Shown piece by piece: positions 20,926 to 53,939 of a stretch of DNA of 64,000 nt. Within the stretch, counting starts at the first letter, position 1, and each line of letters opens with the position of its first letter. The notes under the pieces were generated by a model. It was not told the origin of the DNA. It searched no databases and saw only the letters and a program-made list of their open reading frames with translations. The translations under genes were made by a program, and so were the position numbers. Source of the DNA: an uncultured Gammaproteobacteria bacterium (GTDB lineage Bacteria > Patescibacteriota > Microgenomatia > Levybacterales > UBA12049); assembly GCA_964503265.1 (NCBI GenBank), contig CAZCYO010000005.1, forward strand, positions 39,151 through 103,150, written 5' to 3'.

Positions 20926-21130
20926 GTCTGTATTATAGCAAAGGAGATCTAGAATGTAAACGAAGCGAAAAATGTTTTTTCCACAAACGAGAGTTGTTTA
21001 TTGCTCATTTATGGATTTTTCATTTTTTTATTCTTTTTTAAGGCCAGGTGTTGCTAAATCACTAACTTAAGACTGAGTACAATTTCATCACTTGACACGA
21101 CTTATCCACATTACTACACTGATAGTTCGT
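20926..21130. promoter_or_regulatory. rpmH-dnaA intergenic region: candidate oriC/dnaA promoter with DnaA boxes
   Basis: Perfect DnaA box TTATCCACA at 21102-21110; a 1-mismatch box TTTTCCACA at 20977-20985; an AT-rich tract at 21001-21060. Confidence 0.6.
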
Positions 21131-24511: not shown

Positions 24512-25927
24512 TTAATTTAGTATAGATTTAGCGATTTCAAAATGAAAAGGTTTTAATACAGGAGTACTAAAAAATGGATTAGGAGGAGCTGCTGGAGCTT
24601 TCCCATCACAACTAGTTGTTGAAATACCAGCGTCAGGATTTAAATAGTATGCTACCATATCTGCGAAGTCTTCATCCTCATTCTTAGAACCCTCAATACA
24701 CGAACTTGCATTCGAACCATAGTAACTTACTCCTCCTTCCGACTGTCCAGCGATGATCGTATCATTCCAACGAATTTTCTCTCTATCATTACACATACGA
24801 ATGACGTGTCCAAGTTCATGAGTGAATATATATTTGAAAAATGCTTCCCCATACGGATATGCAATTAAACGAACTGATTCGTCCCCACCGTTTATATTCT
24901 TTTTGCCAGGACACCCAACTTGCGAAGAAGTCTCTCCACTGACTTTTTTAACGATTGCTCCTTTGACAAGTGAAGAGAAGTTAGTCCCTTTAATATCCCA
25001 CAGTTTCTCCCAAATCCATTTCATATAGTCAGAATTATTATCAAAGCCTTCGATGGTAATTCCAAATTGTTCTTTTATCGCACTGGCAAGATCAGTTGGA
25101 TAATTTGGTGGCTTCTGTCCGCGAGGACTTCCATCTCCTGTTTTCCCTCCACAATTAGGTGGGAGGACAGGTGATACGGAAGGATTTCCGACTTTCGTTA
25201 TGACACAAGGACTTTGTCCATCACTAGAACCATTTGCACTAATAGATGGTTTAGAAGAAGTATCTACATTTTTCGCAACATCGATAAGAAATTCTTTAAA
25301 AAAACCAACTCCCGGATCTGATCTGTTTGTGGGATTGAGTTGGTAATGACCAAATACCCCATCGCCTGATACCGGGTTATATTCATCAAATTTACTCGTC
25401 CAATCGTAAGAGAGTCCACTTACAGGAATATCATACTGTTTCATGAGTTGATTCACCAGCGTGACAGCAGCTGTATACTGGACTGGTGGAACAGATACTT
25501 TGTCGTGGAAGACACCGTTATATGTCATTTCAATTGAAATTGCTTCTTGGTTATAGCCTGCCACGGCGTATGCAACTTCTGTCGTTTTATCAAGGAGCTC
25601 AACTGTCTGAAGCATCTTCCCATCAGCACCGATGATAAAATGAGCATCTACACCTCGTCCCTCAGAGCCTGAAGCAAAGTAATTATATGTATCAAGAGCA
25701 TTCATACTTGAAGCAGTTGTATGCATCACTACTTTTCTGGGTATAACGCAGTCTCCTGGTCTTCCGTAATCCTCACCAAGAGGCACAAAGAGTTTTTGGA
25801 CATTCGGAAATGAAATAGGTGTTCCAGGACATGTGGTTGGCTGGTTTGCAGCCAACACAGGTGGAGATATTAGAAGTAGAAAGAAAATTAGATTAATAAG
25901 TAAGATTGCATATTTCATAATTAACAC
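24512..25927 (-). CDS. secreted two-domain cell-wall hydrolase: N-acetylmuramoyl-L-alanine amidase (Amidase_2/PGRP) + HExxH zinc metallopeptidase
   Basis: 471 aa; signal peptide; Amidase_2 motifs (VVMHTTASS...AHFIIGADG...AYAVAGYNQEAISIEMTY); a C-terminal HELGH motif (IFTHELGHVIRMCN). Confidence 0.7.
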   Translation of the reverse strand: MLIMKYAILLINLIFFLLLISPPVLAANQPTTCPGTPISFPNVQKLFVPLGEDYGRPGDCVIPRKVVMHTTASSMNALDTYNYFASGSEGRGVDAHFIIGADGKMLQTVELLDKTTEVAYAVAGYNQEAISIEMTYNGVFHDKVSVPPVQYTAAVTLVNQLMKQYDIPVSGLSYDWTSKFDEYNPVSGDGVFGHYQLNPTNRSDPGVGFFKEFLIDVAKNVDTSSKPSISANGSSDGQSPCVITKVGNPSVSPVLPPNCGGKTGDGSPRGQKPPNYPTDLASAIKEQFGITIEGFDNNSDYMKWIWEKLWDIKGTNFSSLVKGAIVKKVSGETSSQVGCPGKKNINGGDESVRLIAYPYGEAFFKYIFTHELGHVIRMCNDREKIRWNDTIIAGQSEGGVSYYGSNASSCIEGSKNEDEDFADMVAYYLNPDAGISTTSCDGKAPAAPPNPFFSTPVLKPFHFEIAKSILN

Positions 25928-29400: not shown

Positions 29401-29505
29401 ATAATCTTTTACATCGTTTTCTGAGGGATGGTATTGTCTGAGGAATGCTTCCCATTGCGAGGCTCGCTGTTTCTTAAGCGGATCGATGCGAGTATTTGTA
29501 GCCAT
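26482..29505 (-). CDS. VirB1-like large bitopic cell-wall hydrolase (cytoplasmic N-domain, one TM, extracellular domain with a C-terminal SLT lytic-transglycosylase-like motif)
   Basis: 1007 aa; TM VPVLVVVIIIILLIIFIFMLLGMAG; C-terminal ISCESGYNPNAWADPIAVGTPDSGGAWGLFQM matches the SLT catalytic E-S...GLxQ signature. Comparable to PrgK/TcpG/TraG-type hydrolases of Gram-positive T4SS. Confidence 0.6.
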   Translation of the reverse strand: MATNTRIDPLKKQRASQWEAFLRQYHPSENDVKDYSSWVTWKQRLEPDVRASVSDKLLQFKNDFDELGGYDALAYMRTEEKEHTTSHPTGGHGGAHATSPIKPGDEKKAVDAAEDILRKNKALQPEDTPEQIREREKKAAAEKIIRRFFKENPVNYRRALERKYLPHDPRFTQIAQDRNLEQTTPRGELGDSHTTATSNSARERFFAYHTGALQEYYQKERKEIHQDKREDPMWEASYTSLQEAYAKLTTPTPSYYSDAVSQLGEAQVGAIGRAVYTRQFVEQFPEKAEVYAQQDSSIQQAIQEIEVERIEEEDQDVPELPPLIPPLSIPHYAPREEREEAEERDIARSHTRDERQDAGNQPGAQQTTNSQSSNNNTDGPFSRGKKKARDLAQKGAKKIGNAVGNALKKETKQAIKEGAKQLVQKGLAATSEYWVPVLVVVIIIILLIIFIFMLLGMAGQTAQENSELTETIPVIVSKTVNKAEIKNPSELTDEEKLLTYTISTSYAGKARSLETTEYVPDGTTFASASGTFIAYDNTNTIITDPVKQAGSIKKIVWTTNNVGASGLENAETPAVVVDTYTKPPYLLPSPTQSQESFSEDAISRLNTLGGFVAAHQSYLQAKVKNSDKKYVDPFVSVIWAGAIEGTGGNPYSWNCLDKPGTINEGCSGGFTSGGWQVGYGNQVAQAANHLAADFVEVYKTDSPEKVQEVGNNVIENSTAVKGGKIKNPATFPAETVTSLVTKATAGDIQAQQALAILLMDPEIGAVAIAQEVAKDISANDNWRGTMEGWGPYYVSNMQSFSNKMQTLATTYTAGSQSSARTFTPQIYTLVVKANQEIKDTYIINQATAQAVGVEATTSTQTTIPSTENEAANENNCNGTYAGAISKNPLNKNFGDPSCTLDEVKERDNLYALLKQKDAANADKWFFTIISCESGYNPNAWADPIAVGTPDSGGAWGLFQMGQGKNGEYDHGDVAWGNQVTNAINYNNSLQSINLSFHYWECAKSFWQ

Positions 29506-29540: not shown

Positions 29541-31940
29541 CTAAGATTGCTGGGGAGTCGTCGGTGGGAGTGGATTTGTCACAGGAATTGTTCCCGTTTG
29601 AGGCTGTGGTGTCGGAGTCATAGTCATAGTTGTTGTTGGTATTTGTGTTGGTTGCACGGTTGGCGTTTGTTGTGGCGCTGTAGGTGTCATAACAGGAGGA
29701 GCACTCGGTTCCTCAACGGTAACCATAATTGGTGCCGTTGGTGCCGTTGGTGCCGTTGGTGCTGCTGTCGGTAGTGGCATAACAGGGGTAACAACTGGAA
29801 CTGGTTGTGGCGTGACTTGCGATAACGGAGGAAGTGGCTGTGCTCCAGGAACAGGGCCGCTATTTAGTGAGGATTGTGTCGGCTGAAATTCTGTCGGTTG
29901 GGTCGGCATAGAGACAGGAGGAGGTGCCTGTTGTATGACTGGTGGTTGTTCGCTTAAAGTAGGTGTTGGCATAACAACTGGCGGTGGTGTTTGCTCAATC
30001 GGTACTGGTGGTGTCTCTGGAACTTGCTCAACAGGCTCAGGGAGTGGTTGTTCAAGTGGTGTATCAAGCGCTGTCTGATCGTCAAGTGTCTGTTGTGCAA
30101 GCTGTTGCTGTTTCATGACCTCCTCTGGATTTGAAGTAATAAGATCGTGCTCAAATGGTGCGCCAAGTACTTTCATCGCGACGTGATTTTGTCCGGCGAA
30201 AAATAATCCTTCTCCGATATCTGCAGTTAATAATAACTCTTTTTCACCTTCAGATAGATAGAAAATTTCTGTCGCCAAATCGACTTCGGCAGTACCTTGT
30301 TTAAGGAGAATCTGAATAGACGAGTTGGTAAGAACTGCTTTACCGTATTCTGTTTTCAAGAAGTCCTCTACGTCTTGTGTGGCGGTTGTTAATCCCAGAT
30401 AGTATTTTCGCGCACGCTTTGCGATTGAATAGACGAATGAGGCTGAATCTTCGTATTTCATCATATACCACGCTTCATCTAAGATCAGGAGTCTTTTTTT
30501 AAGTGATTTTTTAACTTTTGTCCACACGAAATCCAGAATAATATGCATCGCAATTGGACGCAGTTCATCTTCTAGGTTTTTAATATCAAAGATCGTCAGT
30601 GGATTTGTCAGATCAAAATTAGATTTCTGGTTAAAAATACCTGCAGCAGATCCTTTAATGAATTTCTCAAGTCGAAACGCCATCTCTCTTGCATTCGCAT
30701 CCTCATAGCCCATGAGTGTTTTGTATAAATCTTCCATAATTGGTGCTTCTTTGTTCTGGGTAGATGGATCAGGTGTAATGCCTTTTTGACCGTATGTTTC
30801 AATAAGTGCTTTATCTAAAAGCGCGTCATGTTCTGCATCGAGTGTTCCAAGCACGATCTTAAGGAGCCCGTGAAGAGAAAGAATCTTGAGGCCAAGCTCA
30901 TTTTCTCCTGCTTCAAACAGGTTTGCCAAATCAAACGGATTAATTTTAACGGGAGCATTATTTGAGAATTCGACGACTTCACCACCAAGTGTTTGAGTAA
31001 GTGTTCCGTATTCTCCCTCGGGATCTACGACGATTACTTCTGTTCCAAGCATGAATTGCCGCATAATCTCAAGTTTGATCAAATACGATTTCCCTGATCC
31101 TGATTTTCCTAGAACCATCTCGTTCGCATTTTCAAGTGAGAACCTGTCGAAGATAATGAGGGAACCGTTTTGCTGGTTCATCCCATACATGATGCCTTTG
31201 TTCTGTGTAAGCATAGCGCTCGTAAAAGGGAAAGTTGATGCAAGTGATGTCGTATCCATGTTACGAGTGATAAATAGTCGATCACTTGCTATTGGAAGTG
31301 TGGATTTAAATCCTTCTTCCATTTGAAGCGTTGCTGGTTTCGCTGAGAGGAGAAGAGACGCCAGGGTTGTTTGTAGCTGTTTTGATGCTGAGAGCAGATC
31401 TCCAAGCGAATCGCTTGTAATGGTTAGATAAAAAGAAAATTGGAAGAATCTCTCTATGCCTTTTGCTAGTTCTTCCTGAAGTCCAAGTGCATCTTCAAGT
31501 GCTGCTTCAATTTTCGGGTCAACTGGTTTTCCGTTCTCAGCATCTGACGCAATTGTCGCTTCCATTTCCCCGATTTTTCGTCGTAAGTCATTTAATACAT
31601 CATTTGAAGACGTTGGGTAAATAAACATGGAAATATCAATGGTGTGATCGTAATCGACGACTGGTTGTAGCCAACTTGGAGAGACATAACGTGGGTATCC
31701 GACGACAAAGAGGGTGGAGTAATACTTTTCCCCGACACGTACATATTTGAAATCAACTTCAACAGAAGATGGAGAGATAAGATCAACCATCGACACCGTT
31801 CCCTTTTCTAGATTTTGAAGTGCTTTAGATGTAGGTGATGGTGGTGGCGTTTTCCCTTTTGCTGCTGGTTGAGGTGCTTGTGCACCAGCTTGTGTCTGGA
31901 CGGGTGGTTGCGCCACCTTTTTATTTCCAAAAAGTCCCAT
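29541..31940 (-). CDS. VirB4/TraC/CagE-family T4SS ATPase (ATPase body, with a Pro/Thr/Gln-rich ~190-aa C-terminal tail)
   Basis: 799 aa; Walker A GKSGSGKS and Walker B LLILDEAW. The region after the Pro-rich N-terminus (VDFKYVRVGEKYYSTLFVVGYPRYVSPSWL) matches the VirB4 central domain. Confidence 0.85.
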   Translation of the reverse strand: MGLFGNKKVAQPPVQTQAGAQAPQPAAKGKTPPPSPTSKALQNLEKGTVSMVDLISPSSVEVDFKYVRVGEKYYSTLFVVGYPRYVSPSWLQPVVDYDHTIDISMFIYPTSSNDVLNDLRRKIGEMEATIASDAENGKPVDPKIEAALEDALGLQEELAKGIERFFQFSFYLTITSDSLGDLLSASKQLQTTLASLLLSAKPATLQMEEGFKSTLPIASDRLFITRNMDTTSLASTFPFTSAMLTQNKGIMYGMNQQNGSLIIFDRFSLENANEMVLGKSGSGKSYLIKLEIMRQFMLGTEVIVVDPEGEYGTLTQTLGGEVVEFSNNAPVKINPFDLANLFEAGENELGLKILSLHGLLKIVLGTLDAEHDALLDKALIETYGQKGITPDPSTQNKEAPIMEDLYKTLMGYEDANAREMAFRLEKFIKGSAAGIFNQKSNFDLTNPLTIFDIKNLEDELRPIAMHIILDFVWTKVKKSLKKRLLILDEAWYMMKYEDSASFVYSIAKRARKYYLGLTTATQDVEDFLKTEYGKAVLTNSSIQILLKQGTAEVDLATEIFYLSEGEKELLLTADIGEGLFFAGQNHVAMKVLGAPFEHDLITSNPEEVMKQQQLAQQTLDDQTALDTPLEQPLPEPVEQVPETPPVPIEQTPPPVVMPTPTLSEQPPVIQQAPPPVSMPTQPTEFQPTQSSLNSGPVPGAQPLPPLSQVTPQPVPVVTPVMPLPTAAPTAPTAPTAPIMVTVEEPSAPPVMTPTAPQQTPTVQPTQIPTTTMTMTPTPQPQTGTIPVTNPLPPTTPQQS

Positions 31941-32605
31941 TATGCTGCTCCTCCTTCTCGAACGAATGCACCATGAACACTTGTATCAACTTCACTCATA
32001 GAATAGGTGCTATCGTTATAGATTTCATAGAAGAGTTTGGCTAATTCATCTTTTTCAAGGAGTTTTGCCGAGGAAGAGAGTTTTCGAAGTTGGCCAAGTA
32101 ACGATTCGGCTTTCGCGAGAATTGCTTCTTGTGCTTTCGCTGCAAACGCGTCTGGGACATCTCCTTTTTTACTTACAGCTTGAGTTGCTCCAGCTGCTCC
32201 AAGTTCCATTGAAGAGAAAGGAACGACCATATAGAATTGTTTACTTAAGACCACATTTACTTTCGTCATTTCCTGAACAAAGTCTTTATAGAGTTCAATT
32301 TGCTTTGAAAGGAGTGCGTTTGTGGTTTTTTGTGCTTGTTCTTCAAGCTGTTTGGTGTAGATCGAGATATCCATTCGTTTGTTACGAACCAGAATCTGCA
32401 CAGGGAATGTTAATGAATTAAGAAGAGACGCATAGGAGTAGATACGAGCATCCTGTTCAGCTCGTGAGAGAAGTGAGAAGTTACTTGCGGTAATTTCGAT
32501 GATGCCACAGGCATTCCCACTTTCAAGCAGGACTGTGTTTCCGATGATATCCTTTATTTCGGTAAATTTTTGGGTAGATGAATGTACTTGGGCAGATTTA
32601 CTCAT
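31940..32605 (-). CDS. VirB4 N-terminal domain encoded as a separate ORF (split VirB4)
   Basis: 221 aa; EIKDIIGNTVLLESGNACGIIEITASNFSLLSRAEQDARIYSYASLLNSLTFPVQILV matches the conserved extreme N-terminus of Gram-positive VirB4 homologs. Its TAA overlaps the ATG of the ATPase ORF (TAATG). Confidence 0.6.
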   Translation of the reverse strand: MSKSAQVHSSTQKFTEIKDIIGNTVLLESGNACGIIEITASNFSLLSRAEQDARIYSYASLLNSLTFPVQILVRNKRMDISIYTKQLEEQAQKTTNALLSKQIELYKDFVQEMTKVNVVLSKQFYMVVPFSSMELGAAGATQAVSKKGDVPDAFAAKAQEAILAKAESLLGQLRKLSSSAKLLEKDELAKLFYEIYNDSTYSMSEVDTSVHGAFVREGGAA

Positions 32606-32607
32606 AG

Positions 32608-33864
32608 TTAGCTAAACAGTGCTTTTCTTAATTCTTCTCGTTCGTCATGGGACGTAATATCAAGCGGGTGAAGGATGTCTCCATTCACTATTACTTCAAT
32701 TGTATCAAAGCGCGCGATACTTTTGGGATCCTCAAGCGTTAATGTATAAACTCCGTTAGGGAGTGCTGTTGCTGATGCAAATTGTCCGAGTTCATTTGTT
32801 TTAAATGCCCGAACCGGAGTGCCTTCTTTATCGGTTAATTCAACTAAAATATTTGAGAGAATATTCCCTCGTGGATCGTGGACCACTCCAAGAAGGACGT
32901 TTGGTGTGTCTGAAGGGGTTAATATCCCTCGACTTTTTGCTTCGGCCGGTGTCATAAGTTTTTTTACATGAGGCTCGTAAGCTAAGTCTACAGGCGTTTC
33001 ATTTGGAGCAGGTGGTTTTAATTCCTCGACTGTATACGTGCTCGTCAGTTGTGGGGCAGCTGCCGATGTTTCTGCTTGGTGCATTTTTTGTAGTTCTTGC
33101 TCGAGCTGCTCTTTTTGTTTGAGAAGCGCTTGCAGTTGATGTTCAAGTGACATTGTATGATCATGCGCAGCTTGAGTCTGTGCAGCCTGTGCATGCATTT
33201 CTTCATCTTTTGCCTTATTAAGTTCTGCCTGCATCTTCGTCACTGTATCGATAATTTCTTTGTCTTTTTCTTCAAGTGATGTTGGTGCAGTGGATTGTGT
33301 TGTTATTTGGGGAATGATAATTCCGCCATCAATTGCCACAGGAGGAGTGGTTGGGTGCTGAAGCGGTAGAGGCGCTGGGGCTTGAGGATTAAATAAATGC
33401 TGCAGGAAGGCTGATTCACGAGTATCCATGTCAGATTGCTTTTGGGTTGCTGTACTGGCGAGAAATGTCGTAAATGCTTTTTTCTTTTCTTCTTCTTGTG
33501 CCTTTTTTTCCGGTTGATGAGTCGCGTTTTGATTTACGTGAGTTGAAATGGAGAAGTCTGTAAACGCATAGTGATTACCCATCTTTTGATACACATATTG
33601 GTTCGGTGAAATAAGTGCTTTAAGGAGTTGTGTAACCATAACATCAAGTGGGCGTCCGTCAATTGGTAAGAATGCAAGGGCTGCACCACTTCCGGCAAAT
33701 AGCGGGATGAAGATAAGTTTTAGTAAGAGAAAGACAGGAGCATAGTAAAGAATAATTGCACTTACACAGCCGGTCGCGAGATAGGCAAATTGCTTCACTG
33801 TCATGTTTCCGATGAGTTTAAATTGAAATCCGGTGACGTCTTGTGGGATAGGATGGTTTTCCAT
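32608..33864 (-). CDS. VirB3-like (PrgI/TcpE-family) membrane protein fused to a coiled coil and a C-terminal carboxypeptidase-regulatory-like beta-sandwich domain
   Basis: 418 aa; N-terminus FQFKLIGNMTVKQFAYLATGCVSAIILYYAPVFLLL with two TM segments (VirB3/PrgI-like); central Q/E-rich coiled coil; C-terminus LLGVVHDPRGNILSNILVELTDKEGTPVRAFKTNELGQFA (CarboxypepD_reg-like). Confidence 0.5.
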   Translation of the reverse strand: MENHPIPQDVTGFQFKLIGNMTVKQFAYLATGCVSAIILYYAPVFLLLKLIFIPLFAGSGAALAFLPIDGRPLDVMVTQLLKALISPNQYVYQKMGNHYAFTDFSISTHVNQNATHQPEKKAQEEEKKKAFTTFLASTATQKQSDMDTRESAFLQHLFNPQAPAPLPLQHPTTPPVAIDGGIIIPQITTQSTAPTSLEEKDKEIIDTVTKMQAELNKAKDEEMHAQAAQTQAAHDHTMSLEHQLQALLKQKEQLEQELQKMHQAETSAAAPQLTSTYTVEELKPPAPNETPVDLAYEPHVKKLMTPAEAKSRGILTPSDTPNVLLGVVHDPRGNILSNILVELTDKEGTPVRAFKTNELGQFASATALPNGVYTLTLEDPKSIARFDTIEVIVNGDILHPLDITSHDEREELRKALFS

Positions 33865-42063: not shown

Positions 42064-42067
42064 TGTA
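42012..42067. repeat. simple-sequence repeat: 8-bp unit GCAATGAA x6 perfect + 1 degenerate copy
   Basis: Seen directly (agcaatgaagcaatgaag...caatgtaac). It lies in the divergent region between gene 40309-42063 (-) and gene 42084-42773 (+). Confidence 0.9.
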
Positions 42068-42083
42068 ACAATCTAACATTTGG

Positions 42084-42773
42084 TTGTATACTATTTCTAT
42101 GCTCTTTGTGGGATTATTCTTTCTTTTTCTTATTCTCTTATTTATCTCATCATATTTACTTACTCAATCTCTTTCAACTCTTTTTTATCGGATCACGAGA
42201 AGTGAGAGATGGACTATTACTATTCTGGCCCTTCTTTTTTTTCCAGGTGTGCTCATTCACGAGTTGGCACACTTCTTAATGGCAACGATATTATTTGTTC
42301 CGACAGGGGAGATAGAGTTTATCCCACAGATTATGGAAGACAGGGTGAAATTAGGGAGTGTTCAGATCGGGCAGACAGATCCATTCAGACGGGCGATTAT
42401 CGGGATTGCACCAGTTATCGTTGGGGCGAGTGTATTAATTGGGGTATTATATTACTTTACAACTTCGACCTTCGCATTTACTACACCACTAGATATTCTT
42501 AAAGTACTAGGGATACTCTATATAGTGTTTGAAATTAGTAATACGATGTTTTCGAGTAAGCGTGATGTTGAAGGTACGCTTGAACTACTTGTAGCCATAG
42601 TGGTTATCGGAGGGGTACTCTACTTTGCTGGAGTACGACTCCCTGAATCGTTTATCGAAGTGATTACTTCAGACAAAGTATTATCATTCTTTGAACAAAC
42701 AAGTAAACTTCTCATTCTCCCGCTGCTTCTTAACTATTCCTTGTGGGCAGTAAGTAAACTCCTCGGAAAATAA
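42084..42773 (+). CDS. polytopic membrane protein with an HExxH motif (putative membrane zinc metalloprotease)
   Basis: 229 aa; about 5 TM segments; LIHELAHFLMA motif at the end of TM2. Confidence 0.4.
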   Translation: MYTISMLFVGLFFLFLILLFISSYLLTQSLSTLFYRITRSERWTITILALLFFPGVLIHELAHFLMATILFVPTGEIEFIPQIMEDRVKLGSVQIGQTDPFRRAIIGIAPVIVGASVLIGVLYYFTTSTFAFTTPLDILKVLGILYIVFEISNTMFSSKRDVEGTLELLVAIVVIGGVLYFAGVRLPESFIEVITSDKVLSFFEQTSKLLILPLLLNYSLWAVSKLLGK

Positions 42774-42777
42774 CTCT

Positions 42778-43143
42778 TTACGTACATGTGTCAAATCCAA
42801 AGTTCTTAATGCATGAGGCACCTGTTATATATGCGATTGTATTGACGATACCTATCGCTAAGAGAATCAATACAAGTCCGATCAGTGCATAGGTGATGAT
42901 TTGTTTTGCTGCACCTGCTTGTTTCGGATCTCCACCAGACATAATATATTTAATACCACCCAAAATGATAAACACGAGTGCGGTAAATCCAGCAAAGAAG
43001 AGGGAATAGTTAAGGAGTTGCTTAAAGAGCGCCGGGATACATGCTAGTGTTGCGATATCAGCAGTCCCATCTGGTGCAGTCCCTTTAAGACAGCCTGCCT
43101 TTGCCCAGAAAGATTCAGCGAGAATGAATAAGTGAATGAACAT
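42778..43143 (-). CDS. VirB2/TrbC-like T4SS pilin paralog 1
   Basis: 121 aa; signal sequence + TM-loop-TM core GFTALVFIILGGIKYIMSGGDPKQAGAAKQIITYALIGLVLILLAIGIVN, shared with the four downstream paralogs. Confidence 0.6.
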   Translation of the reverse strand: MFIHLFILAESFWAKAGCLKGTAPDGTADIATLACIPALFKQLLNYSLFFAGFTALVFIILGGIKYIMSGGDPKQAGAAKQIITYALIGLVLILLAIGIVNTIAYITGASCIKNFGFDTCT

Positions 43144-43212
43144 ATATCTAGCCTAACAAATGCCAAAAAAAAAGACAAGCATATGCTTGTCTTAGTCTAA
43201 AAAAGACGGTAA

Positions 43213-43644
43213 TTAGTTAACGAGTTTCGGAAGAGAAAGATTACTAACACTAAGACCAAATAATCCGAGAACGATATTAAGAATGAAGTAGGCAAGGAAG
43301 GTAATAATAAGACCAACAAGAGCAGCAACGATAGTCCCACGTGCTTCTCCAACTTTGGCTTTATCACCACCTGAAAGAATCCATTTAATACCACCAAAGA
43401 TTAGAAAGAAGAGAGAAATAACAGCAGCAATTACAAGAACTCCAATAATTATATTTCGAAGAACATCGCCAGTTGAACTGCCTTGAAGCTTACATAGTTG
43501 ATCTTGGATTTGTCCTGCTGATCCACCCGTAACACCTGACTTAGCACAAGGATTAAGATCTACTTCGCCAGCTGCCATTGCAGTAGATACGACTGAGGCC
43601 ATAAAAAGTGAAGATGTAGAGATTGTTGTGAGCAGTTTTTTCAT
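43213..43644 (-). CDS. VirB2/TrbC-like T4SS pilin paralog 2
   Basis: 143 aa; signal peptide (MKKLLTTISTSSLFMASVVSTAMA); core LFFLIFGGIKWILSGGDKAKVGEARGTIVAALVGLIITFLAYFILNIVLGLFGL. Confidence 0.65.
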   Translation of the reverse strand: MKKLLTTISTSSLFMASVVSTAMAAGEVDLNPCAKSGVTGGSAGQIQDQLCKLQGSSTGDVLRNIIIGVLVIAAVISLFFLIFGGIKWILSGGDKAKVGEARGTIVAALVGLIITFLAYFILNIVLGLFGLSVSNLSLPKLVN

Positions 43645-43784
43645 GTTTTTTAGATAAGTTATTGTTATCTGTATTTATTATTGAACTATTGTTTATGTGT
43701 TGTCAATAGATCAAAATGAATTACTTTTTTGTGCCCTTTTGAGGCTAAATGTATTCATTTGCTATAACGGCGCATCATCCAAAA

Positions 43785-44198
43785 TTAGTTATTCACCAAT
43801 CGAGGAATTTTAAAGATAGTGTTTGAATCGAGTCCGAAAATTCCAAGAACAATATTTAAAATAAAGAAGGAGAGAAAGGTGATGATTAGTCCGACGACTG
43901 CTGCAGTTAACGTCGCACGTGCTTCGCCAACTTTTGCCTTGTCCCCGCCAGAGAGAATCCATCTAATACCACCATAAATAAGAAAGAATAACGAAGCGAT
44001 CGCTGCTAAAACGAGTAAGATTGAAACGATATTAAAAATAAGTGAATTACCGCTACTTTCTGGATTTATATCGCAGAGAGATTTAAACCCACCATCAGGA
44101 CACAGTGTTACCGATGATGCAGCGATAGTGTATGTAGCAGACAGAATAACAGTACCGATAGAGGAGAGTGCGCTAATAGGAAGAAAATATCGTTTCAT
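43785..44198 (-). CDS. VirB2/TrbC-like T4SS pilin paralog 3
   Basis: 137 aa; core LFFLIYGGIRWILSGGDKAKVGEARATLTAAVVGLIITFLSFFILNIVLGIFGL, about 80% identical to paralog 2 in the core. Confidence 0.65.
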   Translation of the reverse strand: MKRYFLPISALSSIGTVILSATYTIAASSVTLCPDGGFKSLCDINPESSGNSLIFNIVSILLVLAAIASLFFLIYGGIRWILSGGDKAKVGEARATLTAAVVGLIITFLSFFILNIVLGIFGLDSNTIFKIPRLVNN

Positions 44199-44237
44199 AG
44201 ATATATCGTAGAAACTCTCACAAAAAAAGTCAATTGA

Positions 44238-44567
44238 TTAGGTGTTTGGTAGATCAAGAGACAAGAGATTTATATTAAACATGTATCCAACGATATTAAC
44301 TATCCCAAAGGAGAGAAAGACGATGAGTACCCCAACTACTGCAAAGATGATTCTATTTCGCGCAGCTTGGATTTTCGCTTTATCGCCACCAGAGGTTATC
44401 CATAAAATCCCACCCCAAATAATAAAAAAAAGCGTAATCACTACGCCAATGACTATAAAGAGTGTTATCGCATTTTGAATAAGTTTCTGGTTCTCAGCTA
44501 TACCACCTGTTGGAATACCTGATGGGACTGGGACTGATTGTCCATTAATAGTGAATCCTGCTGCCAT
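44238..44567 (-). CDS. VirB2/TrbC-like T4SS pilin paralog 4
   Basis: 109 aa; core LFFIIWGGILWITSGGDKAKIQAARNRIIFAVVGVLIVFLSFGIVNIVG. Confidence 0.6.
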   Translation of the reverse strand: MAAGFTINGQSVPVPSGIPTGGIAENQKLIQNAITLFIVIGVVITLFFIIWGGILWITSGGDKAKIQAARNRIIFAVVGVLIVFLSFGIVNIVGYMFNINLLSLDLPNT

Positions 44568-44611
44568 AGTATTAGCATAGTGAATACTCTAATCATTTTG
44601 CAAGATAGGTA

Positions 44612-45997
44612 TTATTTGAGATTACCTGCGTTGCCGCCGACTTGAACACTCGCTTTTAGTCCTGGAAGCTGGATGATATCTACACCGATGACTTGGAGCA
44701 TGACCATAGAGAAAACGAGGAAGAGTAACCCAACGATCGCTGATGTGATCTGTTCCTGTGCTGCTTTCACTGCTTCTGCGTTACCCTGAGAGGTCATATA
44801 GCGGTATCCGGCTGCGATAATGGCCAGAAGTGCGATACCACCTGAAATACTTAATAGGATTCTAAATAACCAGAGAATAAACCCCTGGGGGTCAGTGCTG
44901 ATCGCTCCAAGAGCAGAGTCTACTTTCGTACACTTTTTAATTTGTGTAAGTGCTGTTTTTATCGTTTCTGCATTCGTGTTCCCTGGAGCAAGGGTTGGAA
45001 TGGCAATAATTTTACCCGAAGAATCTTTTCCTTCGATACATGGTGGGAGAATGGGGGTCGGGATAGGGGTGGGTGTTGGATCTGATGATTTTCCGGAATT
45101 TCCTGTACTTACTGGTCCTTGTTCACCACTGATGTTACTTTGTGCGGCCTTACATGTTTTTTGATCTACAACATCGTCAACTAGTTCAAAAGGCAAGCTC
45201 CACCGGCATGTTACTCCGGCTGTCGTTCCAAGAAAGCTGTTGTTAGTGGCTTCCATACACAATTTTTTCTTTCCAGTTGTCCATGCTTTATTCGTTTTAA
45301 AATCCCACGGAATTTTACTGCGTGTGGTTTGAGAGCCACTTAGCGTATCAGTAAAGGGTTCTGTATCATTAAATGTTTTTTTATCTAAGAAAGATCCTCC
45401 ACCATCTAGCCAAAATGAATACGTAACGTTGGGTTGCGGATTTATGACATATACTTGCGTAGATGTACCTTTTTGGATCTGTGTGCAAGACATATAGAGT
45501 GCAATGTCACCACCCTTATAAATCACGCGATATGCGCCTTGGGCTAGAAGTGAGTTATTTTTGTCGTTGATATTACTATAAACTTGACTAGACTTGCTAT
45601 CATAGAGGCTAAATTTATGTACACCAGGTTCTTGTACATCTCTTCCAGTATTCGGAAATTGAAAAACTAATTTATTTTTTTCAACAGATGTTGGATCTTT
45701 CGTATCTTGATTTCCTCCAATAAGTTGTAATGTTGTCTGCACTTCTTTTCCTGCGCTACTTACAAGAAGTGTATATCCTTTGTTTTTATCGAAAATATAT
45801 GTTGTTGAGGTGAATGTGATAGTAAAGTTTGCTTGTCCGGATTCAATGGTGAACCCATCGTTCTTATCCGTTTTCGGTACAATAGGTGCTGTCACAATAT
45901 CTGGATTAATCGCAAATATAACTTGTGGAGCGAATATATGAGAAGAAATGATTAACGTGAAGATAAAGCACTGGGCAAGGAGTCTTTTCATGCTCAT
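44612..45997 (-). CDS. large secreted protein: ~330-aa extracellular N-domain fused to a C-terminal VirB2-like pilin module (candidate minor/tip pilin or adhesin)
   Basis: 461 aa; signal peptide; C-terminus LFRILLSISGGIALLAIIAAGYRYMTSQGNAEAVKAAQEQITSAIVGLLFLVFSMVMLQVIG is homologous to the pilin cores above. Confidence 0.55.
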   Translation of the reverse strand: MSMKRLLAQCFIFTLIISSHIFAPQVIFAINPDIVTAPIVPKTDKNDGFTIESGQANFTITFTSTTYIFDKNKGYTLLVSSAGKEVQTTLQLIGGNQDTKDPTSVEKNKLVFQFPNTGRDVQEPGVHKFSLYDSKSSQVYSNINDKNNSLLAQGAYRVIYKGGDIALYMSCTQIQKGTSTQVYVINPQPNVTYSFWLDGGGSFLDKKTFNDTEPFTDTLSGSQTTRSKIPWDFKTNKAWTTGKKKLCMEATNNSFLGTTAGVTCRWSLPFELVDDVVDQKTCKAAQSNISGEQGPVSTGNSGKSSDPTPTPIPTPILPPCIEGKDSSGKIIAIPTLAPGNTNAETIKTALTQIKKCTKVDSALGAISTDPQGFILWLFRILLSISGGIALLAIIAAGYRYMTSQGNAEAVKAAQEQITSAIVGLLFLVFSMVMLQVIGVDIIQLPGLKASVQVGGNAGNLK

Positions 45998-46071
45998 TCT
46001 ATCGTAGATGAGAGGGAAAATGTTTGCAAGTTCATACTTCTTCTTTTATGACTGAGTGGTACAATTAGTAT

Positions 46072-47409
46072 ATGAAAGAGAAACATTTCGATTCGTTATA
46101 TCCGGCTGATTCGTATTCTGATGAAATTGCCAAGATTGGCGTATCTATTAAAGAAGGGAACTCTAGTCAGCTCATCGGACTTCCTGGTGTAGGAAGAGCA
46201 AATGTATTAAGTCTGCTTGCACATAACAAGTCTGTTCGAGAGAAACATTTTGGAGAGAATCAGAAATGGCAACATTTCGTACTCGTTAATTTCTCTGAAG
46301 TAAAAGATCGAACACTTTTTGATGTCACTAAGTTTCTTTTTCTCTCACTCATGGAATCATTAAAAGAACGTTCGATGACTGAAGAGTATGAAATGGTTCA
46401 GGCTGAATTTAAAGAAGCACTCTCATTTAACGATGAATTAGTACTTTTTCAAGCCTTGAAATCAACTATCGACTATTTGTGCCTAGAGAAAGAACTAACT
46501 GTCATTTTTCTTTTTGACAGGTTTGCAGAATATTTACAGCAATTAACTTCAACGTTTTTTGCTAACCTTCGTGTGCTTCGAAATCATGCCAAATATCGTT
46601 TTAGTATCGTTTTTTCTTTAGAACGACCCCTTGAAGATATCATTGAGCCGTCGCTGCTATCAGATTTTTATGAATTTGTGGGTGGACACTATGTGTTTAT
46701 GCGCATATATGATCCTGTAAGCGCGGCATTTAGGCTCTCATATCTAGAGAAAGTTACCGGGCGAAAGCTGGATAACGCATGTATGGATGAAATACACCGA
46801 TTAACAGGTGGATTGTGGAGGCTTACGAAGATTTGCGCTGAAGCGATGCTTGCTGAGGAGAAACATGCAGATGAGCTGTTACCGTTTCTTCTTTCACGCA
46901 AAACAGTAAAAGAAGCATTATGTAAAATCTGGGATTCATTTTCACCTGATGAACAAACCGCACTGCGGACCTATATGGATGGAAAGATAGATCCAGATGT
47001 AGAGATGCAAGAATACCTTTCAAAGATTGGAATTATTAAAGATAACGTCCTTCAGATACCATTTCTTAAAGAGGTAATTGGACAAAAAGAAGTAACTACA
47101 CAACTGGACGAACATATTATTTATGACATAGATACAAATATGATCATGAAAGGGGATGTGGAGATTTCAGATAGATTAACTGCTGCCGAATACCGCTTAT
47201 TACTTTTCTGCCTCCAGAACACCGAGCGAATTCTTGAGCGTGATGAAATTATTACAGCAGTTTGGAGAGATAGTGCGACGACTGCAGGGGTTACCGATCA
47301 AGCGCTTGACCAGCTCATTTTCCGGGTTAGAAAAAAGATTGAAGCAGATCCAAATAACCCCCTCCATCTCCAGACGGTCAAGGGCAGAGGGTTTAAATTC
47401 AGTTCCTGA
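46072..47409 (+). CDS. transcriptional regulator: N-terminal ATPase-like domain (degenerate P-loop) + C-terminal OmpR/PhoB-type winged-helix DNA-binding domain
   Basis: 445 aa; LIGLPGVGRANVLSLL P-loop-like segment; C-terminus LTAAEYRLLLFCLQNTERILERDEIITAVW...LIFRVRKKIE...LQTVKGRGFKF matches the trans_reg_C winged helix. Confidence 0.55.
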   Translation: MKEKHFDSLYPADSYSDEIAKIGVSIKEGNSSQLIGLPGVGRANVLSLLAHNKSVREKHFGENQKWQHFVLVNFSEVKDRTLFDVTKFLFLSLMESLKERSMTEEYEMVQAEFKEALSFNDELVLFQALKSTIDYLCLEKELTVIFLFDRFAEYLQQLTSTFFANLRVLRNHAKYRFSIVFSLERPLEDIIEPSLLSDFYEFVGGHYVFMRIYDPVSAAFRLSYLEKVTGRKLDNACMDEIHRLTGGLWRLTKICAEAMLAEEKHADELLPFLLSRKTVKEALCKIWDSFSPDEQTALRTYMDGKIDPDVEMQEYLSKIGIIKDNVLQIPFLKEVIGQKEVTTQLDEHIIYDIDTNMIMKGDVEISDRLTAAEYRLLLFCLQNTERILERDEIITAVWRDSATTAGVTDQALDQLIFRVRKKIEADPNNPLHLQTVKGRGFKFSS

Positions 47410-50900: not shown

Positions 50901-52212
50901 TGATACAGGAGTGGCTGCGGTAAATGGTATGTCGAAATACAAATGGGTAAGAAGCTATAAGTATAAACAGGCTGATTCTGGACGTGCCGGTCCGGTAGGT
51001 AATTTGTATGGTATGGGTACAGTTCAAGAAGTATACGTCGATGTATTTACTGGTATGTTAACGATTGGGAAGAAATCTATCATGGAAGTGGTCGAGCGGA
51101 AAATAAAAGACTTGAAAGATAAAAAATCATTTGAAGAAAAAGAAAAAACAGCACAAGAGCTTAACTTTAACCTTAATACAGCAAAACAATATGGAGCTAA
51201 TACGTCTAATGCGGCAAAGATTTATTTATCAGAAGGTGGTGCCGATATGCCACATTTCCATGATTTCATCGAGGTGAATCAGTGGGGAACAGTCAGAATC
51301 AATGCAGATAAAATGGCCGAGGCATTTCAAGATAAAATTATTAAACCTGCTCGTTATAACTGGAGAACCAACCCCATGCCATTTCATAAAGATGTCAGAA
51401 AATTACTCGATGATCCTAAACTACCTAAAAAGATTAAGCTTAAAGATGGAAGAGAAATACCGGTTCGAGACACCTATATGACTGTCACTCAGCTGGAAAA
51501 TACTTTTAGTAGACAAGCGATTAGTAATATTCAAAAGATTTTCCAGCATGATATGCATCATAAATTTAATATGGATAAAGATGATAAGAAGTCTGTTGAT
51601 TATTTTACTGCTAATGCACATGCAAAGTTTTTTGACGAAAAAGCTGGGCGAGTGTATCGATTTAAAGTGAACGAAAAAGGAGACTATGTCGATAAAAAGG
51701 GAAAAGCGATTCATATGCCACATCATGAGGGCGGACATCATCAAAGTGAAGTAGACTGGCTATTAAAACGTGGTGTTGTTGATTGGGATACGAATAAGAC
51801 AACTGTGGGTCTTGAAAGTAAATTACCTAAAGAAATAGCTGACTTAATGGATAATAGTATTTTTCGAAGTATTGTGGTGAGAAGTTATTTGGTAACACGA
51901 TTTGGAGGATTGTTATACGGAAATTCTGTCAGAAACAGTCCATATAAGTTCTTAGATATTTTATCTCGTGAACATGCAGTTGAAGGACTTGAAAGTATCC
52001 CGACGAACGCTGTCGCAGATGAAGATGATCTGCATGCGAATAATATGCATGGACACTATTTTTCTCACTTTGATATCCAACTTATTCGAAAATTATCAAA
52101 TAATCAGCGTTGGAAGAATTATAGTAAAGCAGTAGGCGAGTCGTTTAGTTCAGGAACATTTGAGGGACTGAAAGAACTTTGGAGCTTCTTCTGGAAAAAC
52201 GCATTTAGTTAA
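47929..52212 (+). CDS. giant hypothetical protein (1427 aa), soluble, K/E/D-rich; candidate secreted substrate/effector or structural protein of the T4SS-like locus
   Basis: Uninterrupted 4.3-kb ORF with no TM segments or nucleotide-binding motifs. It lies between the regulator/4HB genes and the VirB6-like gene (its 3' end overlaps by 4 nt). Confidence 0.5.
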   Translation: MKQNEFYVNEDQLRLTEKQHQSYARSMHEPALDTKEDKALDTAVSKFVVRIQSAFRRQDDAEKKKQEEEKKNLEKNADKDTKPDSPINKTPVTNEHDTLQEPKVSLLSKLFGALVSGISNEKLLVKAESFTQSYKTLNTAKPEELKDLFLSWEPDTKDRTEIMLSKTAQRMILEIVKDKGISTAIFLQAVNSGSTVKAQEAASTIQHTAGVSEPMQKAIQDILDTMEVHPVDEWKTEDYAKQFVKLHKAVEKSSDSGTPQSAVDLQVAQVVENFLIDEVTADNVSENSFVQAVTTVVTNSEEADGNASFHAHPEPIQKNDEQKAVLEAERILKENQTATPTADAADAYLKNQPAASPETIHTFSNIPKKLSGGHSVETAYAVWKAFNRGQELSEEQRLLAERGLIPTLEGGSPLTRADDGEQVHNRLPMQEVRMGASPDTTTFEEFLDTLDPEAKKNLLESLAEADKEAVKKPEVRALERAENLKDRIDRWGTSYDPKKRQEDLKKLRGLVQPNGELTTRRGSILSAIKRAKFDPDEPPVDDPEDTTGRKKVARGISPEKIKKERDYVQKIFEAARASVNDALLRGDIDAVKITEKGLLDQLLIYEKKYPSERRGKGKEGYDTVENINDLCEQISRSDDRFDIGGDYQLIDDKTQSVNEQNFMIWIREQMVYWHGQDPDSEVKFFSQIAVDNNDLFRPINLGSMIANKSLYFKTRDNNTLEDLYNEVTNLAWLIGGIRNMDISYRLQMTPEEKNGELMASLLANNMLTKKSANGKNTLEAILTMAGRFYDKANHGDAGDDFMEKHRDMDLGDGIATGLAIYYNITDKEKLQSLIGADTHFFKRSGFKMALEKMAGVDKLDLPEVAERKMHAYLKRAKLLTKDDDDVDDTFEAFMDKWFGKEEDGELQEKGRTDFMKMLNVFVPEPHPQQVDLANQLIRQAITELSNKHKEPRVRGKPNDFAQADVADDATANFAQLTASLMSWWGGAAAKADTGVAAVNGMSKYKWVRSYKYKQADSGRAGPVGNLYGMGTVQEVYVDVFTGMLTIGKKSIMEVVERKIKDLKDKKSFEEKEKTAQELNFNLNTAKQYGANTSNAAKIYLSEGGADMPHFHDFIEVNQWGTVRINADKMAEAFQDKIIKPARYNWRTNPMPFHKDVRKLLDDPKLPKKIKLKDGREIPVRDTYMTVTQLENTFSRQAISNIQKIFQHDMHHKFNMDKDDKKSVDYFTANAHAKFFDEKAGRVYRFKVNEKGDYVDKKGKAIHMPHHEGGHHQSEVDWLLKRGVVDWDTNKTTVGLESKLPKEIADLMDNSIFRSIVVRSYLVTRFGGLLYGNSVRNSPYKFLDILSREHAVEGLESIPTNAVADEDDLHANNMHGHYFSHFDIQLIRKLSNNQRWKNYSKAVGESFSSGTFEGLKELWSFFWKNAFS

Positions 52213-53939
52213 TCAGAAGGTAGCTCTTGTCTGGCAGTGACTTGACCTGTTGTCGTTTGTACTGGAGTAGATGGTCGATCTCTTCGTACACCACCTGTTA
52301 GGATACGTATGCCACTTGATACTTTGCCCCATGTTCCTTTTGCTGCATTTGCTCCGGTTCCTGTTAGGAATTGTCCAGCTGCATATTTATATGAACCATC
52401 AGATTTCTTCTCAAATGTTTTCTTACCTATCCATTTAGGAATCATCGTCGTACCAGCAGCGCCTTTCTGGAATCCACCAAGGATAGCTGGAGCGATGTAT
52501 TTATTTGGACTGGACTTGAGTGCTTCTCGAACCATCGTTAACATGTCTGGGAGGATGAGGAGGAAAGAAAATCCGATGATGTAGCCTAGTCCGCTAACAC
52601 CTGTCGCTGGGGTGCCGATAAGTGGGGGATTAAAGCTGAGTGTTTTATCGTTTCCAGATGTCATGAGAATACGTCCAGCGAGCATCACTGCGACACAGAC
52701 AGGATAGATCATGAGATTTGAGATAAGTCCTCTGATCCACGGGCTAAAGCCAAATGTGCTTTCAGGGAAAATGCCTGCAAATAAATAGAGTGGACCAAGT
52801 GCGGTATAGATAATGACGTAGGCAAAGGAGCGAAGTAACATAAACCAAATACGAAACAAGGTAATCATAATCGCGATGATGACGACGAGAGTGACGAATA
52901 CATCGACGACCCATTTGAGTACTGAATTAAACATCCCAGCAGCACAGTTGCCGATATTTCCACCATCATCTCCTGCTTGCCACGGGCCTATTTTAAATCC
53001 GCATGGACTGTTATTTGGAAAAATTGTAAGCGATCCTGCAACGTCTCCAAATGTCTCAGCAACACGACGTGAAATTGCGACTGGGCCAGCAGCGACATCA
53101 CCAGGAGTGTTTAGCGAATATTCATCTTTTAAGTTGTCCGTGATTGCACCATAAAATCCGTAGGGACTTTTGATGAGGTTCTGGATAACTTTTCCATTAT
53201 CTATTTGTCCTGCATCTTCGACAGATTCAAACAGATTAATCGCCAGATATGTCGTCGCCCACATCGCATCGACTAAAATGCCGACAATCGCATAAGAAAA
53301 AGTGATGAGGAGCATTGTTATGACAATTTTAGGAAGCTGGTTTTGAATCGTCATTACTGTTCGGGGATCGATTTTGACTCGCAGCATGATCGCAAGTCCG
53401 ATAATGACAAAGGCAATTACAAATCCCATATATGCAATATCTCGAAATATTCTCCAGAAACGAAGCATATAATCGAGCTGTTCAAATCCAGTACTTTGGG
53501 CATATGTTGATGTCACAACGCCGAAGTTATTTGCCATATATGAGACATAATTTCCTGTATGAATTGGCATGGCGTACATATCACCCATAGAGGAGGTAAG
53601 TGCTCCGATTAGTCCACCTGGTTGATTGGTCTGCGAGGGCGTAGCATAGCCTATTTTATTTGTCTCACGATTAATTGTTAGACATGGCTTTTGTGTTATC
53701 ACATCAGTACCGGATAATTGACAGATCATCGAAGCGAGTACTTCGATCATCATGGACTGGACAAATGTATGCTGATTTTGGGGAACATTCGCGTCGGTAT
53801 TAGGTGTCACATATTGGTTATATCCTTGTGCATGGGACGTGGGGACAATAGCTAAGACTGAACCAGATATAAGAACGAGAAAAAGAAAAAAAGAAAAAAT
53901 TTTTGAAGGAGAAAACTTCACCAAGGCAGGCAGATGCAT
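52209..53939 (-). CDS. VirB6/TrbL-like polytopic membrane protein
   Basis: 576 aa; signal peptide, ~130-aa extracytoplasmic N-domain, then at least 6 TM segments and a hydrophilic C-terminus. The topology and its position in a T4SS-like locus fit VirB6/TrbL. Confidence 0.5.
   Translation of the reverse strand: MHLPALVKFSPSKIFSFFLFLVLISGSVLAIVPTSHAQGYNQYVTPNTDANVPQNQHTFVQSMMIEVLASMICQLSGTDVITQKPCLTINRETNKIGYATPSQTNQPGGLIGALTSSMGDMYAMPIHTGNYVSYMANNFGVVTSTYAQSTGFEQLDYMLRFWRIFRDIAYMGFVIAFVIIGLAIMLRVKIDPRTVMTIQNQLPKIVITMLLITFSYAIVGILVDAMWATTYLAINLFESVEDAGQIDNGKVIQNLIKSPYGFYGAITDNLKDEYSLNTPGDVAAGPVAISRRVAETFGDVAGSLTIFPNNSPCGFKIGPWQAGDDGGNIGNCAAGMFNSVLKWVVDVFVTLVVIIAIMITLFRIWFMLLRSFAYVIIYTALGPLYLFAGIFPESTFGFSPWIRGLISNLMIYPVCVAVMLAGRILMTSGNDKTLSFNPPLIGTPATGVSGLGYIIGFSFLLILPDMLTMVREALKSSPNKYIAPAILGGFQKGAAGTTMIPKWIGKKTFEKKSDGSYKYAAGQFLTGTGANAAKGTWGKVSSGIRILTGGVRRDRPSTPVQTTTGQVTARQELPSD

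Follow-up and report, generated by a model that had tools for sequence, protein, structure and literature searches.

The 64,000-nucleotide stretch analysed here, from an uncultured, ultra-small bacterium of Levybacteria type (contig CAZCYO010000005.1 of assembly GCA_964503265.1, positions 39,151 to 103,150; hereafter the window) carries five consecutive genes that, judged by sequence comparison, encode VirB2-like pilin hairpins of a chromosomal type IV secretion system (T4SS). When the array was compared with its relatives, the same kind of evidence resolved the five genes into four old, positionally conserved subunit classes, which we call A, B, C/D and E, and not into a pool of recent variants.

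Five tandem genes encode VirB2-like pilin hairpins

All five genes lie on the minus strand. Pilin A (44612-45997, 461 aa; gene callers start it two codons later, giving a 459-aa form) is followed by pilin B (44238-44567, 109 aa), the two C/D-class copies, pilin C (43785-44198, 137 aa) and pilin D (43213-43644, 143 aa), and pilin E (42778-43143, 121 aa). The original prediction, made from the letters of the window, had described five tandem paralogs here, which the open reading frames, the shared core and five matches to Pfam family PF18895 (T4SS_pilin) confirm. Against a gathering score of 26.6 bits for this family, E (39.5 bits, the highest among the five), B (32.7), D (29.5) and A (27.4, at residues 374-437) score above it and C (25.4) slightly under. 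Each protein has a C-terminal core made of a hydrophobic helix, a Lys/Arg-rich S-x-G-[DN] loop and a second hydrophobic helix, and the paralogy is far beyond chance even between the two least alike, B and E (BLASTP E = 5e-13). When we scanned the window with a hidden Markov model (HMM) of this pilin core, it matched exactly the five array genes and no others.

Core identity is about 25-43% between classes and 60% between C and D (55% over the full length); the consensus motif originally quoted for all five proteins holds for the C/D pair but not for the set. The expectation that the N-terminal regions would diverge strongly among the copies was borne out. A conserved signal peptide had also been proposed, and this stands for only part of the array: clear Sec-type signal peptides, with readable AxA-type cleavage sites, occur in A, C and D only, whereas B has none and E a weak one at most.

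The assignment to the VirB2/TrbC group was upheld, supported by the PF18895 matches, by the T4SS locus around the array and by more distant homologs. Among the window proteins, PF04956 (TrbC/VirB2) weakly matches B alone (14.7 bits, E = 0.038), below its gathering score of 27.9. We found 409 homologs of pilin D, and because 21 of 46 D-type homologs match PF04956 (best E = 2.9e-6), the link of the array pilins to canonical TrbC/VirB2 appears remote but real at the sequence level. In NCBIfam, the top match of all five is NF045849, 'pilin-like conjugal transfer protein', at 17-27 bits against a cutoff of 40. The five N-termini show neither the class III signal and N-methylation motif (G|F/M-T-L-x-E) nor the single N-terminal helix of type IV prepilins, and no type IV pilin Pfam family matched, which removes the alternative that had been named as contradicting the assignment. 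A profile search of the PDB with the pilin alignment returned only chance transmembrane (TM) matches to Smoothened, and fold searches against solved conjugative pilins (TraA, VirB2 and TrbC) were uninformative, yielding no match specific to pili. Contigs 100% identical to the window are present in Logan SRR12487046 and ENA ERZ4216102, and array homologs carry the names Candidatus Levybacteria or Levyibacteriota.

Four subunit classes are conserved across related arrays

Using the regulator gene beside the array (see below) as an anchor, we fetched 80 genome loci, scanned them with the pilin-core HMM and compared about 45 related arrays. Two relatives, L003 and L006, share the layout of the window, with the regulator, a large pilin and four small pilins of matching sizes. 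Core identity to the positional orthologs in L003 and L006, respectively, is 76% and 55% for A, 81% and 41% for B, and 86% and 44% for E; pilin C has 82% core identity to its L003 ortholog. Over the whole set the gene order A-B-(C/D)-E recurs: 19 arrays read ABDE and 16 read BDE, the rest being mostly truncated or duplicated versions.

The classes can be told apart by signal peptide, by number and position of cysteines and by length of the N-terminal region, and these signatures are stable over 28-45 members per class. Class A proteins have a signal peptide and a Cys-rich N-terminal region (median 323 aa) within a total length of 154-647 aa. Class B, with 42 orthologs, has no cysteine, lacks a signal peptide in 95% of cases and places a conserved N-tail of about 30 aa (..PxG(I/V)PTGG..) before the hairpin. 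Two cysteines in the N-terminal region mark class C/D: in pilin C a signal peptide is followed by a Cys33-Cys42 loop and then the hairpin, and in pilin D the signal peptide (AMA|AG) precedes a Cys33-Cys51 loop and helices 57-90 and 95-128, which the AlphaFold2 (AF2) model folds into a helical hairpin of 34 + 34 residues with a predicted local distance difference test score (pLDDT) >90. Class E carries four cysteines, in pilin E C18 and C35 in the N-tail and C111 and C120 in the C-tail (motif C[IV]xxFxFxxC), a pattern kept over 42 orthologs, with the C-tail motif visible in most of the E sequences printed.

In a neighbour-joining distance tree, which carries no support values, C/D is the only class with repeated lineage-specific duplication. 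Its duplications are independent in several lineages, one of them falling in the ancestor of the window and L003, and the duplication seen in the window is common to L003 only. The sequences thus suggest that only the C/D class was duplicated, several times independently.

Two further observations concern the distribution of the family. One sub-lineage (L014, L017, L019, L025, L026, L029, L038, L040, L044, L048 and others) has B-(C/D)-E arrays divergent from the regulator and no large A gene adjacent; its class E proteins are longer and carry clear signal peptides. Separately, an exhaustive search with the pilin profile returned 64,794 representative clusters at E <= 1e-3, and 59 of the best 150 of those matches are predicted single polypeptides with 2-17 tandem pilin hairpins (for instance P0361, P0363, P0367 and P0441). 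In these 'poly-pilins', of which examples have six repeats in 552 aa and 17 in 1775 aa, the repeat consists of a first TM helix, an [ST]xGD loop and a second TM helix, with linkers of 20-40 aa.

The class A protein is a modular fusion

One copy had been described as fused to a large extracellular domain, and the AF2 model of pilin A (pLDDT 76) agrees. It shows a signal peptide, beta-sandwich (immunoglobulin (Ig)-like) domains at about residues 50-160 and 165-275, a disordered Pro/Thr linker (residues 293-313), a conserved module bridged in the model between Cys320 and Cys356, and the C-terminal hairpin (helices 370-402 and 407-441, pLDDT >80 there). Foldseek returned only tandem Ig-like and macroglobulin matches, which are generic, at 8-15% identity. 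More than 100 class A-like homologs of 250-750 aa have the same C-terminal PF18895 anchor, and they are common in Levybacteria. Compared with L003, the membrane-proximal module and the anchor can be aligned at 43% identity; the L003 protein has additional copies of the membrane-proximal module, and the distal domain of the window protein has no counterpart there. By these alignments the class A ectodomain is modular and shuffled relative to L003.

No variation machinery is apparent in the array

The array paralogs have 60-74% core DNA identity, with no long identical tracts and no gene-conversion tracts, and inside the array we found no invertible repeats or elements and no slippery runs. When the window is compared with L003, every segment shows a dN lower than its dS; this is a weak test, because dS is saturated (>1-2 or undefined). 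In the same comparison the highest dN was found in the N-terminal regions of A and D, and the slowest-evolving segment is the N-tail of B.

A regulator gene is linked to the pilin arrays

The gene transcribed divergently from the array (46072..47409, plus strand) encodes a 445-aa protein with a Trans_reg_C match at residues 368-443 (E = 2.8e-16). Its PDB matches (PhoB, RegX3, KdpE and ToxR) cover only this C-terminal OmpR/PhoB-type winged helix. None of the 21 family members examined has a Response_reg match, that is, a receiver domain, and the N-terminal part gives weak matches to AAA_16, nSTAND1 and NPHP3_N, with AAA_16/nSTAND found in 4-7 of the 21. With no receiver domain and these weak N-terminal matches instead, the protein is best classed as a STAND-like regulator of the one-component kind, as opposed to a response regulator of a two-component system.

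This gene had been put forward as an ATPase/winged-helix regulator and a candidate controller of the array. Its linkage to pilin genes favours the second part of that proposal: among 61 assessable loci, 58 have the regulator within 1.5 kb of a pilin gene (33 co-directional, 25 divergent). The ATPase label is weak, as the P-loop is divergent; in the Walker-A-like motif GxPGVGR[SA]N at residues ~36-44, Arg replaces the canonical Lys, and at least 90% of the 21 members aligned share this, suggesting from sequence that the nucleotide-binding domain is atypical or non-hydrolysing. The family is large (1133 homologs at E <= 0.001, the top 120 listed being at least 50% identical along the whole query or most of it), and the regulator is far better conserved than the array pilins. 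A protein predicted to form a four-helix bundle (23S rRNA intervening-sequence protein family, TIGR02436; 47434-47811, plus strand) lies immediately 3' of the regulator and is missing at that place in L003.

Expression signals in the array

Each pilin gene of the array has a predicted sigma-70-like promoter of its own, which is conserved in L003 as well even though synonymous sites have reached saturation. The 74 nt between the regulator and pilin A (45998..46071), a presumed divergent promoter region, contain a conserved block, ATGAACTTGCAAAC...TACGATAGA, and are conserved relative to L003 despite saturated synonymous sites. In that block, a -35 box TTGCAA, 17 nt and a -10 box TACGAT stand immediately ahead of the A start; on the other side, the regulator -10 box (TACAAT) ends 6 nt ahead of its ATG. 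The -10 box likewise ends 6 nt ahead of the ATG in B, C and E, and in A the distance from the end of the box is 3 nt to the first ATG or 9 nt to the second. Boxes so near the start codon lead us to expect leaderless mRNAs for A, B, C and E.

Pilin D has a different arrangement. Its promoter-like site (43677..43706, minus strand; TTGACA, 18 nt, AATAAT) matches at 11 of 12 positions, the highest in the region, and is kept in L003 and L089; 32 nt of A-rich sequence separate the -10 box from the ATG, pointing to a transcribed leader of about 25 nt. After the gene comes a hairpin resembling an intrinsic terminator (43172..43193, minus strand), with a 9-bp stem and a T9 run and a folding free energy of -15.3 for the window and -14.8 for L003, also present in L089. 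The L089 contig, 1.7 kb long with a D relative 92% identical, was used solely to confirm this promoter and terminator. We considered whether a C/D terminator marks a universal major pilin and rejected the idea, as just 2 of the 45 arrays, those of the window and L003, have one, in addition to L089.

A strict -10 pattern is found at 73 of 157 pilin genes, against four out-of-frame control matches. Leaderless-type promoters were nevertheless rejected as a pilin-specific trait, being a genome-wide habit. In many window genes (e.g. those starting at 13263, 14985, 21092 and 46072) a -10-like box (TACAAT, TATACT or TACGAT) ends some 6 nt ahead of the ATG, and just 3 of 45 genes show a Shine-Dalgarno-like motif. 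These patterns suggest that mRNAs are mostly leaderless in the source Levybacteria genome.

The surrounding T4SS locus

Genes for several further T4SS components lie on both sides of the array. A PrgI/VirB3-like protein with a CarboxypepD_reg domain (32608..33864, minus strand; PF12666 E = 5e-8) has a counterpart that, in L006 and in most of the related loci, comes immediately after the pilin array. Beside it are a TraC-like protein of 221 aa (31940..32605, minus strand), 49% identical to an L006 protein carrying PF26593 (TraC-like), and a VirB4-like ATPase (29541..31940, minus strand; PF19044, TraG P-loop, E = 3e-27, also AAA_10 and DUF87), which lies seven genes from the array on the same strand. 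Beyond the regulator, a polytopic TrbL/VirB6-like membrane protein with several TM segments (52209..53939, minus strand) scores 24.4 bits against PF04610 (gathering score 25.9), and 67 of the 80 regulator loci have a homolog of it. An Amidase_2 cell-wall hydrolase (24512..25927, minus strand; PF01510 E = 4.6e-18) is, from its position, a possible functional counterpart of VirB1. The window also holds dnaA (21092-22492) and dnaN (22747-23868). No relaxase or coupling protein (VirD4) family was found among the window open reading frames scanned.

The usual order in related loci is VirB6, a giant protein, the regulator, the pilins, PrgI, the TraC-like protein and VirB4, then dnaN and dnaA. The window lineage has the pilin block inverted with respect to the regulator and additional genes between the array and PrgI.

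Comparison with known pilin systems

The published Patescibacteria arrays and the Southlakia array mean that this kind of feature is already known. In 383 Patescibacteria assemblies, Quinonero-Coronel et al. (2025, PMC12102498) reported 441 VirB2 arrays, each with 2-11 pilin genes and a mean identity of ~25% (maximum 54%), without relaxases, near virB4 and often near dnaA, their abundance being highest in Microgenomatia and Saccharimonadia; their definition (at least two pilin genes in tandem or one gene apart, near virB4) fits the window array. In Southlakia epibionticum, the pilin series of the T4SS cluster was stated to be essential (Wang et al. 2023, PMC10633639): SEML1_0014-0019 appear in the tables as PF18895 proteins, and among the transposon-sequencing rows listed, SEML1_0017-0019 are each scored essential. 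The window array resembles both in being a tandem PF18895 array of members with low mutual identity, in a Gram-positive-type T4SS cluster (VirB4, PrgI, VirB6) near dnaA, with no relaxase or coupling protein, and Levybacteria belong to Microgenomatia. It differs in that this array and its relatives have a 250-750-aa class fused to Ig-like domains, whereas the Southlakia pilins are all small, with PF18895 ending at residues 99-180. In the portions of PMC12102498 and PMC10633639 available to us, we found no description of four fixed classes in conserved order, of an Ig-like fusion class or of a linked regulator, so that fixed classes, an Ig-like fusion class and an apparently dedicated regulator would add some unreported detail.

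VirB2/VirB5 of Agrobacterium, TraA of F and TrbC of RP4 share with the window set the two-helix hairpin with a short basic loop, a VirB4 machine, a signal peptide (in most window copies) and the remote PF04956 homology. Unlike these Gram-negative systems, the window set has five subunit genes, no VirB5 homolog, a monoderm envelope and one adhesin-like fusion. The VirB2 paralogs of Bartonella and Anaplasma, as far as they are described where PMC12102498 cites them, are likewise tandem copies with divergent surface regions, but the window classes appear ancient and positionally fixed, no variation machinery was found in the array, and only C/D resembles an expanding paralog. Mbov_0395/MMCAP2_0565 of Mycoplasma integrative and conjugative elements (ICEs; NF045849) share the hairpin region and the monoderm T4SS context; there the gene is single and on a mobile element, here it is a chromosomal five-gene array, and the match is below cutoff. 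Pilin sets of type IV pili and type II secretion systems, in which a bulk subunit, conserved low-copy subunits and an adhesin are encoded side by side, are comparable by analogy only; their sequence and topology are unrelated, and the window proteins lack the class III signal.

A model for the array and its alternatives

Our best-supported reading, to which we give a probability of about 0.5, is that the array encodes a heteromeric extracellular T4SS assembly, either a pilus or a conduit, made from four non-interchangeable classes. The five genes would supply the extracellular or filament-forming subunits of a chromosomal, origin-proximal Gram-positive-type T4SS in a Levybacteria-like bacterium belonging to the CPR (Candidate Phyla Radiation). 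In the F- and T-pilus structures, the hairpin forms the wall, the loop points toward the lumen and both termini are exposed. By analogy to VirB2/TraA pili, the filament wall would here be built of the hairpins, with the basic S-G-G-D-K loop turned to the membrane or lumen and the tails at both termini on the outside, an orientation that fits the conserved core, the variable N-tails and the N-terminal fusion in the window array. C/D would be the bulk (major) subunit, duplicated here, with D probably the most strongly expressed in this lineage in view of its promoter match and terminator. A would be a pilin-anchored adhesin presenting fast-evolving Ig-like domains on a Pro/Thr stalk in place of the missing VirB5 or PrgB. 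B, whose insertion probably bypasses the Sec signal route, and E, whose N- and C-tails may be tied by disulfides, could be low-copy specialised subunits acting, for example, in initiation, at the tip or as adaptors. The adjacent STAND-like protein with its OmpR-type winged helix would serve as a dedicated transcriptional controller acting on pilin genes that each have their own promoter. In Southlakia, the clustered pilins among the transposon-sequencing rows listed are individually essential and therefore not redundant.

Several points weigh against a heteromeric assembly of this kind. No member of the Levybacteria has been seen with a pilus, and a Patescibacteria T4SS pilus figures in the literature only as a possibility (PMC10633639; an 'intriguing possibility' in a 2025 review). 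We identified no operator motif for the regulator. The BDE arrays lack an A gene beside the regulator, and A is therefore not universally required at that position. The promoter and terminator arrangement of D is confined to the window, L003 and L089, which makes the case for D as the major subunit lineage-specific. Lastly, the poly-pilins that exist elsewhere are single chains, which a simple extrusion of monomers does not readily accommodate.

These single chains, with their 2-17 tandem hairpins, resemble polytopic membrane proteins, and their discovery outside the window lends some weight to the possibility that no filament is built at all. The hairpins would then be membrane-embedded parts of the translocon, lining the channel or forming an assembly platform, and A would be a surface adhesin with a pilin-like anchor. 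Such an arrangement would suit Gram-positive-type T4SSs, which are mostly without pili (PMC12102498, PMC10633639), and it is in keeping with a nearest NCBIfam model that is the Mycoplasma ICE pilin-like protein, matched below cutoff, and with fold searches that gave no specific pilus match. We nevertheless consider it rather unlikely, given the remote homology to TrbC/VirB2, whose members polymerise, and four conserved classes, more usual in a heteromeric fibre than in a simple anchor. The Cys-loop N-tails and the 330-aa ectodomain on its Pro/Thr stalk also imply exposure, which an anchor role would explain too.

The original prediction took the pattern to suggest variable pilus composition or antigenic diversification, and PMC12102498 suggests antigenic variation or host-range adaptation for the Patescibacteria arrays. 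The genes would on that account encode interchangeable major pilins serving evasion of immune recognition or phages, or matching to host strains, as proposed for Bartonella and Anaplasma. The strong divergence among copies of N-terminal regions predicted to lie at the surface fits this idea, as do the fast evolution of these regions in A and D between relatives, the independent C/D duplications in several lineages and a predicted promoter for every gene that would permit differential expression. As the main logic of the array, however, we judge it improbable. A, B and E are single-copy and position-fixed, with fixed signatures over about 45 arrays of different species, and C/D alone duplicates repeatedly; the array contains no gene-conversion tracts, invertible segments or slippery repeats; dN/dS is <1 in all segments, with dS saturated; and the essentiality scored for SEML1_0017-0019 among the rows listed for Southlakia is at odds with interchangeable copies. 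That the array is an artefact of chance or annotation, or consists of type IV (PilA/ComGC-like) pilins, has next to no chance of being right. Short hydrophobic proteins can match spuriously, as the Smoothened TM matches illustrate, and we found no support beyond that general caution; the B/E similarity, five independent PF18895 matches, thousands of homologs and conserved synteny all contradict it, as do the lack of a class III signal and of any type IV pilin Pfam match.

A more specific form of the heteromeric assembly can be offered only tentatively: a VirB2-fold pilus on a monoderm T4SS, built from four classes, in which A is a built-in host-recognition adhesin replacing VirB5/PrgB and the whole set is switched by a STAND-like sensor-regulator. 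If true, it would be the first VirB2-type fibre with the 'minor pilin' logic of type IV pili, and it would give a concrete handle on host choice and attachment in CPR bacteria other than Saccharibacteria. The CPR, or Patescibacteria, account for a large part of bacterial diversity, and those in cultivation live attached to the cells of a host. Genetic study has reached one species, and there both the T4SS and its array of pilins are essential. The basic phenomenon is already published, and the window locus mainly adds detail, yet a fixed four-class set, a modular Ig-like ectodomain and an adjacent regulator offer testable subunit roles and candidate determinants of host specificity.

Other genes near the array

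Four large proteins are encoded in the T4SS locus, of 1822 aa (34028-39496, minus strand), 1427 aa (47929-52212, plus strand), 1007 aa (26482-29505, minus strand) and 584 aa (40309-42063, minus strand; its true start is likely near 41905). None has a usable Pfam match or a pilin anchor, and for the 584-aa protein and other neighbours of the array NCBIfam likewise offered nothing of use. All four may be regarded as candidates for surface proteins or secreted substrates; 34 of the 80 related loci hold homologs of the 1427-aa protein. The window genes outside the T4SS-related set are housekeeping genes.

Convergent with the last pilin gene is a gene (42084-42773, plus strand) for a 229-aa protein with five TM segments and a HELAH (HExxH) motif. 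Homologs occur in 7 of the 80 regulator-anchored loci, mostly just beyond the end of the array, and also in L003. Pfam gives a motif-level M50 match only (E = 1) and NCBIfam nothing usable; from its motif and topology the protein could be a putative pilin-processing membrane metalloprotease. Between this gene and the divergent 584-aa gene, a perfect 8-nt tandem repeat (AGCAATGA x 6.9) occupies the intergenic positions 42011-42065 and is not present in L003. As its unit is not a multiple of three and it lies in a promoter region, the repeat could act as a slipped-strand expression switch.

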